A stretch of DNA of 23,959 nucleotides, from IMG/VR virus record IMGVR_UViG_2648501400_000002, positions 1 to 23,959 of that record. One strand, given 5' to 3'. The notes beneath the pieces were generated by a model that saw only the letters and a list, made by a program, of their open reading frames with translations, was not told the DNA's origin and ran no database searches. Position 1 is the stretch's first letter, and each line of letters begins with the position of its first letter. Made by a program: the position numbers and the translations under genes. Below are positions 20,194 to 21,109 of this stretch, in pieces. The stretch is from a virus. Taxonomy: Duplodnaviria > Heunggongvirae > Uroviricota > Caudoviricetes.

Positions 20194-20499
20194 ATGGCCA
20201 TAAAAGGTCTTGAGCAGGCCGTTGAAAACCTCAGCCGTATCAGCAAAACGGCAGTGCCCGGTGCCTCCGCAATGGTCATTAACCGCGTGGCCACAACGGC
20301 AATGAATCAGTCGGCGTCACAGGTTGCCCGTGAGACAAAGGTGCGGCGAAAACTGGTAAAGGAAAGGGCCAGACTGAAAAAGGCCACGGTCAAAAATCCG
20401 CACGTAAAAATCATTGTTAACCGCGGTGATTTACCTGTCATCAAACTGGGGATACGGATGATGCGCCGCGCGATAAATGCACTCTATCTTGTGCGATAA
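20194..20499 (+). pseudogene. Z: Tail protein Z, 3'-truncated; lambda-like sequence ends at about 20455
   Basis: First ~87 codons (MAIKGLEQAVENLSRISKTAVPGA...NRGDLPVIKLG) match recalled lambda Z (192 aa). The sequence then diverges and hits a stop at 20497-20499. No U, V, G, T, H, M, L, K, I or J genes follow. Confidence 0.85.
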
Positions 20500-20536
20500 A
20501 TGGCATCCACGCGGCGTTTCATTATTTGAAAAAGAA

Positions 20537-21109
20537 TTACATTTCAGGTTGCGTTATGACAGTCCCAACAGGGTGATAGCGGTAGATCGTTGACAGTCCA
20601 ATATCATAGATAATTGCCAGCCGCTTTCTGTCATACCCTTTCTGGAGCAATCTTGCGATCTGCTCATGCTGCTCCTTCGTCAGTTTCGGGCGACGTCCTC
20701 CAACTCTTCCTTGTGCTCGCGCAGCAGCCAGTCCAGCCAGCGTGCGCTCAACTATCAGTTCACGCTCCATTTCTGCCAGTGCACCCATCATATGAAAAAA
20801 GAACCTTCCCATCGGAGTGCTGGTATCGATTGAATCCGTCAGACTGCGAAAATTGACACCTTTTGCGCGTAGCTCTTCTGTGAGAGCAATGAGGTGTTTC
20901 ATTCTTCTACCCAACCGATCCAGCTTCCAGACCACCAATGTATCCCCTCTTTTAAGGCACTTTAAAGCGCGTTTCAGGCCTGGTCGTTCCGACTTGGTTC
21001 CGCTCATTTTGTCCTCAAAAATCTGTTCACATCCTGCGCACATTAATGCATTGCGTTGCAAATCTGTGTTTTGGTCATTTGTTGACACACGTATGTAGCC
21101 AATCAGCAT
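20537..21109 (-). CDS. pin: Serine recombinase, Pin/Gin/Hin/Cin-family DNA invertase
   Basis: MLIGYIRVSTNDQNTDLQRNALMCAGCEQIFEDKMSGTKSERPGLKRALKCLKRGDTLVVWKLDRLGR... closely resembles the e14 Pin invertase as I recall it. Start set at ATG 21109; the track ORF extends artificially upstream. Confidence 0.92.
   Translation of the reverse strand: MLIGYIRVSTNDQNTDLQRNALMCAGCEQIFEDKMSGTKSERPGLKRALKCLKRGDTLVVWKLDRLGRRMKHLIALTEELRAKGVNFRSLTDSIDTSTPMGRFFFHMMGALAEMERELIVERTLAGLAAARAQGRVGGRRPKLTKEQHEQIARLLQKGYDRKRLAIIYDIGLSTIYRYHPVGTVITQPEM

Follow-up and report, generated by a model that had tools for sequence, protein, structure and literature searches.

A lambda-like tail gene Z interrupted at the terminus of a BcepMu-like transposable prophage in Escherichia coli

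What ends a lambda-type late operon abruptly inside its tail gene Z and places an invertase and a fibre module behind it on the other strand? The window analysed here, a stretch of viral DNA that constitutes the entire 23,959-bp contig JHSW01000066.1 of the draft assembly GCA_001266175.1, carries on its plus strand the lambda-type late genes Nu1, A, W, B, C, D, E, FI and FII (Pfam names). These late genes end in an open reading frame of 101 aa at 20194-20499, and none of the tail genes U-J is found in the 23,959-bp window. The initial annotation set a break inside Z at about 20455, followed by a pin-type invertase on the opposite strand and a fibre module antiparallel to the head genes. It took the locus for a defective prophage in which a deletion or rearrangement had removed the tail genes and fused Z to an inverted pin-stf module, read as the lambdoid's own. 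The break is real, the next gene is indeed the invertase (20537-21109, minus strand, with Resolvase and HTH_7 domains), and the fibre genes do lie on the minus strand, opposite to Nu1-FII on the plus strand. The deletion and the presumed origin of the module do not hold. The features at the break are:

20194-20458, plus strand: 5' portion of a lambda-like Z, nt 1-265 of 534, interrupted by the insertion; identical to Z of Escherichia phage 2B8.
20194-20499, plus strand: chimeric 101-aa open reading frame, with 88 Z codons followed by 13 codons from the inserted phage terminus (translation compared with 2B8 Z).
20453-20458, no strand: left copy of the 6-bp target-site duplication TACGGA; the hexamer recurs after the other terminus, on contig JHSW01000106.1.
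20459-20508, plus strand: element terminus, with a 5'-TG end and two GCGATAAATG copies at 20470-20479 and 20493-20502 (direct reading).
20459-23959, no strand: fibre (late-gene) end of the inserted BcepMu-like transposable prophage, cut off by the contig end; assigned by identity to the end of Phi2.

Sequence comparison with 2B8 moves the breakpoint to between 20458 and 20459. A BLAST search with window 19000-22000 splits cleanly into two parts. The left part, with FI, E, FII and Z, is 100% identical to 2B8 up to 20459; the identity reaches this base because the following base of Z is also, by chance, a T. The right part, from 20456-20458 on, is 99.7-99.8% identical to the end of a prophage in ST131 and other E. 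coli. At the protein level, the Pfam profile Minor_tail_Z covers residues 3-87 of the 101-aa frame with its positions 1-85 of 190, and the final 13 residues (MMRRAINALYLVR) are encoded by foreign DNA. The exact chimeric protein is present on contigs of NCBI and Logan samples. Among 5,426 complete E. coli genomes, no place covers at least 80% of window 19000-22000, which limits the insertion in Z to isolates that are unlisted or exist as drafts.

A transposable prophage of the BcepMu-like kind, about 37 kb long, has its terminus exactly at base 20459 (TGATGCGCC...). In every copy compared, homology to the element begins at one base, TGATGCGCCGCGCGATAAATGC, beside unrelated genes. Four such neighbours are Z in the window, ycaL in EC958, ddpB/ddpC in SCU-313 and csgI/mgsA in MINF_1A: the matching DNA starts just downstream of aroA in EC958, at the 3' end of ddpB in SCU-313 and downstream of csgI in MINF_1A. 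By comparison with K-12, the EC958 copy, known as Phi2, interrupts the first codons of ycaL. The terminal 87 nt alone occur at 655 places in 597 of the 5,426 complete genomes, next to neighbours as varied as ssuB, yqhA, rstB and others. As a side observation, the broken ycaL reads ATGAAGAA before the prophage and GAAGAATACT after it (positions 234-235 and 37282-37283 of our EC958 extract, L005), and RefSeq still annotates a ycaL coding sequence there, with its start inside the prophage terminus.

Both ends could be read in three complete copies, those of EC958, SCU-313 and MINF_1A. The termini are TGAT...ATCA, flanked by 6-bp direct duplications of GAAGAA, GGTGGT and GCTGGT; the fourth site, in Z, has TACGGA. 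Each terminus of the element carries TGA and two G(C/A)GATA(A/T)(A/T)T repeats with a spacing of about 22 bp, and both termini of BcepMu have the same layout. The paired GCGATAAATG copies in the window are presumed to be transposase-binding sites. Termini of the form 5'-TG...CA-3' are given as characteristic of BcepMu-type elements (PMC2628397).

An insertion has a second end. We predicted the far junction beforehand, as ...GTCTAATCA followed by TACGGA and by Z from nt 266, and then searched for it. The reciprocal junction was found in the same assembly, GCA_001266175.1, on contig JHSW01000106.1: ...GTCTAATCA, TACGGA, then the remaining Z. Across the junction this contig reads ...CATTTATCTCAAGTCTAATCA on the element side and TACGGATCACCGG... 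on the lambdoid side, and it matches the prediction at 100% over 596 nt. The genes that follow are Z', U, V, G, T, H, M, L, a shortened K, I and the start of J. As the window corresponds to one entire contig of a draft assembly, U-J need not be absent from the genome just because the window is without them. The tail genes that the initial annotation found missing, and proposed to look for elsewhere, are thus missing from the window only: U to L, the shortened K, I and the start of J lie on this second contig of the same draft, not contiguous with the window in a corrected assembly.

An independent E. coli assembly, GCA_015138655.1, matches the predicted junction at 99.8% over 975 nt. There the order is GemA, Mor, terminus, TACGGA, Z', U, V, G, T, H, M, L, with at least 2.9 kb of intact early region of the element leading up to the junction. 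When window 20194-20458 is joined to the far side after a single TACGGA, the result equals 2B8 Z at 534 of 534 positions. The far junction was reached through C-terminal fragments of Z, an exact one of 57 aa (P0121) and one of 99 aa (P0122). Another C-terminal fragment (P0059) matched only a 484-bp contig-end fragment in an unrelated E. albertii assembly. An ENA metagenome contig (L014) that encodes the 57-aa fragment was set aside, as it is without the element terminus.

Our reading is that a BcepMu-like prophage of about 37 kb, of the Phi2/PhiKM type, transposed into Z of a resident lambda-like prophage; we put its probability at about 0.95. A DDE transposase would have integrated the BcepMu-like myovirus between nt 265 and 266 of Z, and the 6-bp target TACGGA would have been duplicated at integration. 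The left junction, in the window, leads from the 5' part of Z and TACGGA into the late-gene terminus, the invertase and the invertible fibre module, antiparallel to the lambda late operon. The right junction, on the other contig, leads from the early-gene terminus and TACGGA into the 3' part of Z and then to the tail genes U-J. The draft assembly would have broken within repeats, namely the tandem repeats of the fibre gene and an IS66-family element. The termini, the target duplication, the two junctions, the restoration of Z and the multiple other insertion sites were all read directly; what we observed of transposition are these footprints.

Under the deletion first proposed, or an illegitimate recombination, everything from mid-Z through J would be lost, and what remained would be a prophage without tail genes whose Z is joined to an inverted pin-stf module of the lambdoid itself. 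Within the window this agrees with what is seen, where only pin and the fibre genes come after Z, on the opposite strand. It has nonetheless become highly improbable. The remaining Z and U-J are in the same assembly, directly past the insert's other end and its 6-bp duplication, with U, V, G, T, H, M, L, I and J all on JHSW01000106.1; removal of the insert restores Z exactly; and the breakpoint is, to the base, a mobile-element terminus known at many loci. In complete copies, moreover, pin and the fibre genes form one continuous block with Mu-type genes for baseplate, sheath and head. A chimeric assembly, in which short reads falsely joined a lambdoid contig to a fibre-gene contig, is a natural concern with a fragmented draft whose contig ends lie within repeats, but hardly credible here. 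An identical 60-mer across the left junction was assembled independently in two Logan assemblies, SRR19671056 and SRR14860202; the reciprocal junction, with its matching target duplication, stands in two NCBI assemblies; and no shared repeat able to mislead an assembler is present at the joint 20458/20459. The junction, which the initial annotation had considered a possible artefact, is not one, because the left and the far junction each recur in assemblies made independently.

The tail, baseplate and fibre genes bear P2 names, and one database record says 'P88', which would suit a P2-like prophage integrated by its integrase at a secondary attachment site in Z. We give this next to no weight: the complete 37-kb copy is without an integrase gene and has instead a DDE transposase, an ATPase, Mor, GemA, Gam and a Mu portal, while the sites are numerous and unrelated, with 6-bp duplications that differ in sequence and no common att core. 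Deletion, chimeric assembly and integrase-mediated integration are excluded because the predicted far junction was found, Z is restored and the left junction recurs. An insertion followed by truncation or rearrangement through an IS66-family element, so that an intact 37-kb phage no longer lies between the junctions, is unlikely but deserves more consideration. JHSW01000106.1 passes from the element to an ISEc23-like IS66-family end only 21 nt in, and the region is decaying, given the insertion sequence in O and the shortened K. Against this, the related isolate GCA_015138655.1 keeps its early region intact to the same junction, and a simple insertion of the IS, with both flanks kept, is the commoner outcome.

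In the source strain we see 3.5 kb of the late end, in the window, and the last 21 nt of the early end, on JHSW01000106.1; that the whole 37-kb element sits between the two junctions we infer. The IS66-family (ISEc23-like) terminus adjoins the element 21 nt inside its early terminus (JHSW01000106.1 reversed, L013, 1-98), where it separates the terminal repeat from the subterminal one. The contig breaks at this point because the IS66-family element sits at its start. An IS66-family insertion 21 nt from the terminus may have disabled transposition of the inserted copy.

The identity of the element was established from its relatives. Window 20456-22000 is 99.7-99.8% identical to the end of EC958 Phi2 and to the copies in SCU-313 and MINF_1A, and the longer stretch of about 20457-23800 is 98.4-98.5% identical to the same three. 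The complete EC958 copy has 37,048 bp and is syntenic with BcepMu. Among its genes are those for a repressor, an rve DDE transposase with an AAA_22 transposition ATPase, and Gam, GemA and Mor, together with genes for a Mu-type portal, the Mu F and G proteins, sheath, tube, tape measure and a baseplate of P2 type. The same copy has the fibre genes and the invertase. No integrase is found in these 37 kb, and the sole site-specific recombinase is the fibre invertase.

The transposase of the EC958 copy is 100% identical to that of PhiKM, 68% to BcepMu gp09 (over 98% of its length) and 56% to that of Pseudomonas phage B3, and the AAA_22 ATPase is encoded directly downstream. Pfam matches include rve (9.8e-9), Portal_Mu (1.6e-89) and Mor (1.3e-43). 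Complete copies carry the genes for transposase and ATPase, which fall outside the window; we read them in the copy of EC958.

All the properties that could be tested place the element among the BcepMu-like transposable phages. On the complete EC958 copy, the DDE transposase is adjacent to an AAA+ ATPase, early and late regions diverge with Mor at one end and fibres at the other, and a Mu-type head is combined with a P2-type contractile tail. The insertion sites are many and unrelated, each with a short target duplication, and the TG...CA termini carry repeated subterminal motifs. The element is a mobile BcepMu-like transposable prophage because of this gene content, its termini, its duplications and its many sites.

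In sequence it is all but identical to an ST131 prophage already known and a deposited phage genome, Phi2 of EC958 (ST131) and phage PhiKM (PQ738613.1). The fibre end in the window (20459-23959) is 98.5-99.8% identical to that of Phi2, according to the stretch that is compared, and the two share an identical terminus, the invertase and the 26-bp crossover site. They differ in location, the first codons of ycaL for Phi2 and the lambdoid Z for the element of the window, and only the source strain has the IS66-family element 21 nt from the early terminus. In the literature on Mu-like or BcepMu-like prophages of EC958 we found no paper that describes Phi2 as transposable, and searches under PhiKM returned only unrelated papers of the phiKMV type. 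The genome paper of EC958 describes only the fibre inversion of Phi2 (PMC4134206).

BcepMu (NC_005882.1, Bcepmuvirus) has the same plan: the early operon ends in GemA-Mor at one terminus and the late operon in the tail-fibre gene at the opposite one, the rve transposase (68% identity) is of the Tn552/IS1604 type and accompanied by an ATPase, and the TG...CA ends carry paired GCGATA(A/T)(A/T)T repeats. It is, however, a Burkholderia phage, from another host, and resembles the element at the protein level only; it ends with an acyltransferase gene, whereas the element ends with an invertase and invertible fibre cassettes. With Mu the element shares the way of life of a transposable myovirus with near-random insertion, TG...CA ends and a short target duplication, as well as Mor/GemA/Gam, a Mu-type portal and an invertase-switched fibre module beside one end. 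In contrast to Mu, its early region is inverted relative to the late region, its transposase has an rve Pfam match only, without MuA-specific domains, and its target duplication has 6 bp, against the 5 bp of Mu.

The part of the element that lies in the window beyond the terminus contains the following features:

20537-21109, minus strand: Pin/Gin-type serine DNA invertase of the inserted phage, 190 aa (Pfam Resolvase 8e-51, HTH_7 1e-12).
21164-21189, plus strand: invertase crossover site 1 (GAGAGATAAACGTTGGTTTGGGGGAA), 26 bp, identical to the Phi2_3prime site of EC958.
21181-21609, plus strand: silent alternative C-terminal fibre cassette 1, with a Collar domain (Pfam).
21603-21628, plus strand: invertase crossover site 2 (match to the pattern GGCATAGAAACGTTGGTTTGGGGGAA).
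21620-22081, plus strand: silent alternative C-terminal fibre cassette 2, with a Collar domain (Pfam).
22088-22702, minus strand: tail-fibre assembly (chaperone) gene of the inserted phage (Pfam Caudo_TAP 5.6e-27).
22702-23959, minus strand: 3' part of the tail-fibre gene of the inserted phage (Pfam Phage_fiber_2 repeats and Collar).
23206-23231, minus strand: invertase crossover site 3, within the expressed fibre gene (match to the pattern TCCTCAATTACCTTGGTTTAGAAGAA); it corresponds to the Phi2_5prime site of EC958.

The pin and fibre genes are thus the late genes of the inserted phage itself and not a pin-stf module of the lambdoid. In EC958, SCU-313 and MINF_1A, the counterpart of the invertase lies at the end of the prophage and bears the annotation 'recombinase'. 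Like Gin, Pin, Cin and Hin, the enzyme is encoded beside its target, here the fibre cassettes with 26-bp sites in inverted orientation (two on the plus strand, one on the minus). Cassettes 1 and 2 each form a 229-nt inverted repeat with 22994-23222 of the expressed fibre gene, 93% and 85% complementary, respectively. In EC958, inversion of the Phi2 fibre segment at the 26-bp crossover site was seen with PacBio reads (PMC4134206). Three tandem repeats of 168 bp occupy 23381-23946, in the Phage_fiber_2 region, and the contig terminates inside them, probably through a repeat-induced break in the assembly.

For the lambdoid, the two sides of the junction together give a Z identical to that of 2B8, and then the usual order U-V-G-T-H-M-L-K-I-J. 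It differs from lambda and 2B8 in that Z is split by a foreign prophage of about 37 kb. This DNA, which breaks the lambda late operon, would be transcribed mostly in the opposite direction. The packaging limit of lambda is roughly 75-105% of its genome length. The insertion should inactivate the lambdoid, since it divides Z, breaks into the late operon and lengthens the distance from cos to cos, which would exceed 85 kb, far beyond what lambda can package.

Other lesions are present. The replication gene O is interrupted at about position 90 of the window, its first 421 nt being replaced by the end of a multicopy IS-like element. As the end of this element lies at the window start, O is disrupted by an IS and the assembly is broken there; the disruption of O was correctly noted before. 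The same holds for the stop in ninI, a Ser/Thr phosphatase gene at 6764-7429: a gapless alignment to an intact homologue reaches 99.4%, yet the gene falls into two open reading frames (6764-7042 and 7148-7429), a split that implies a premature stop. With Z and O interrupted, a premature stop in ninI and an apparently shortened K, the lambdoid is very probably a defective prophage. The initial annotation was right in this respect, though not in its reason, the missing tail genes.

The K gene on JHSW01000106.1 is apparently about 480 bp shorter than that of 2B8, by a deletion between 21-nt direct repeats (about 6016-6036 of the reversed contig, L013, against 6221-6721 of the 2B8 extract, L016), and no K was called between L and I. 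The IS-like end occupies positions 1 to about 101 of the window, 97% identical over 102 nt; single genomes, such as that of E2348/69, contain up to about 30 copies of the element, and its terminal sequence ...TGTGTATAAGAGACAG resembles an inverted repeat of the IS4/IS50 type.

The apparent loss of ten tail genes comes down to a contig boundary and a nested prophage, and for this reason the locus should be counted neither as a remnant without tail genes nor as a hybrid of lambda and pin-stf. It offers a clean example of how the end of a transposable phage can be recognised: a constant terminal base beside unrelated genes, TG...CA ends and a 6-bp duplication. The Mu-like phage associated with ST131 is mobile and, with copies in 597 of 5,426 complete genomes, widespread in E. 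coli, where it can inactivate other prophages. That a transposable phage inserts in another prophage is expected and already understood biology, and the nested prophage described here leaves current understanding unchanged.

A second natural case of the element nested within another prophage was seen in AR_0085 (NZ_CP029741.1, at about 4184356), where an end of the same type lies inside the lysB/lysC spanin genes of a P2-family prophage. Two nested cases, the lambdoid Z and the P2-type lysB/lysC of AR_0085, thus stand among roughly a dozen contexts, and each junction of the Z insertion was also assembled in two or three further samples. One could propose that the element lands in resident prophages more often than by chance, so disabling rivals, and that the nesting is stably inherited. 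We consider this very doubtful: two nested cases are equally expected from near-random insertion into genomes rich in prophages.

The nin region of the lambdoid holds a further open reading frame, of 590 aa (window 3264-5036), on the minus strand, with its neighbours on the opposite strand. It has no Pfam and no PADLOC match. It is kept as a 'hypothetical protein' in related lambdoid prophages, for example in strain CD45, and could be a moron or a candidate defence gene.
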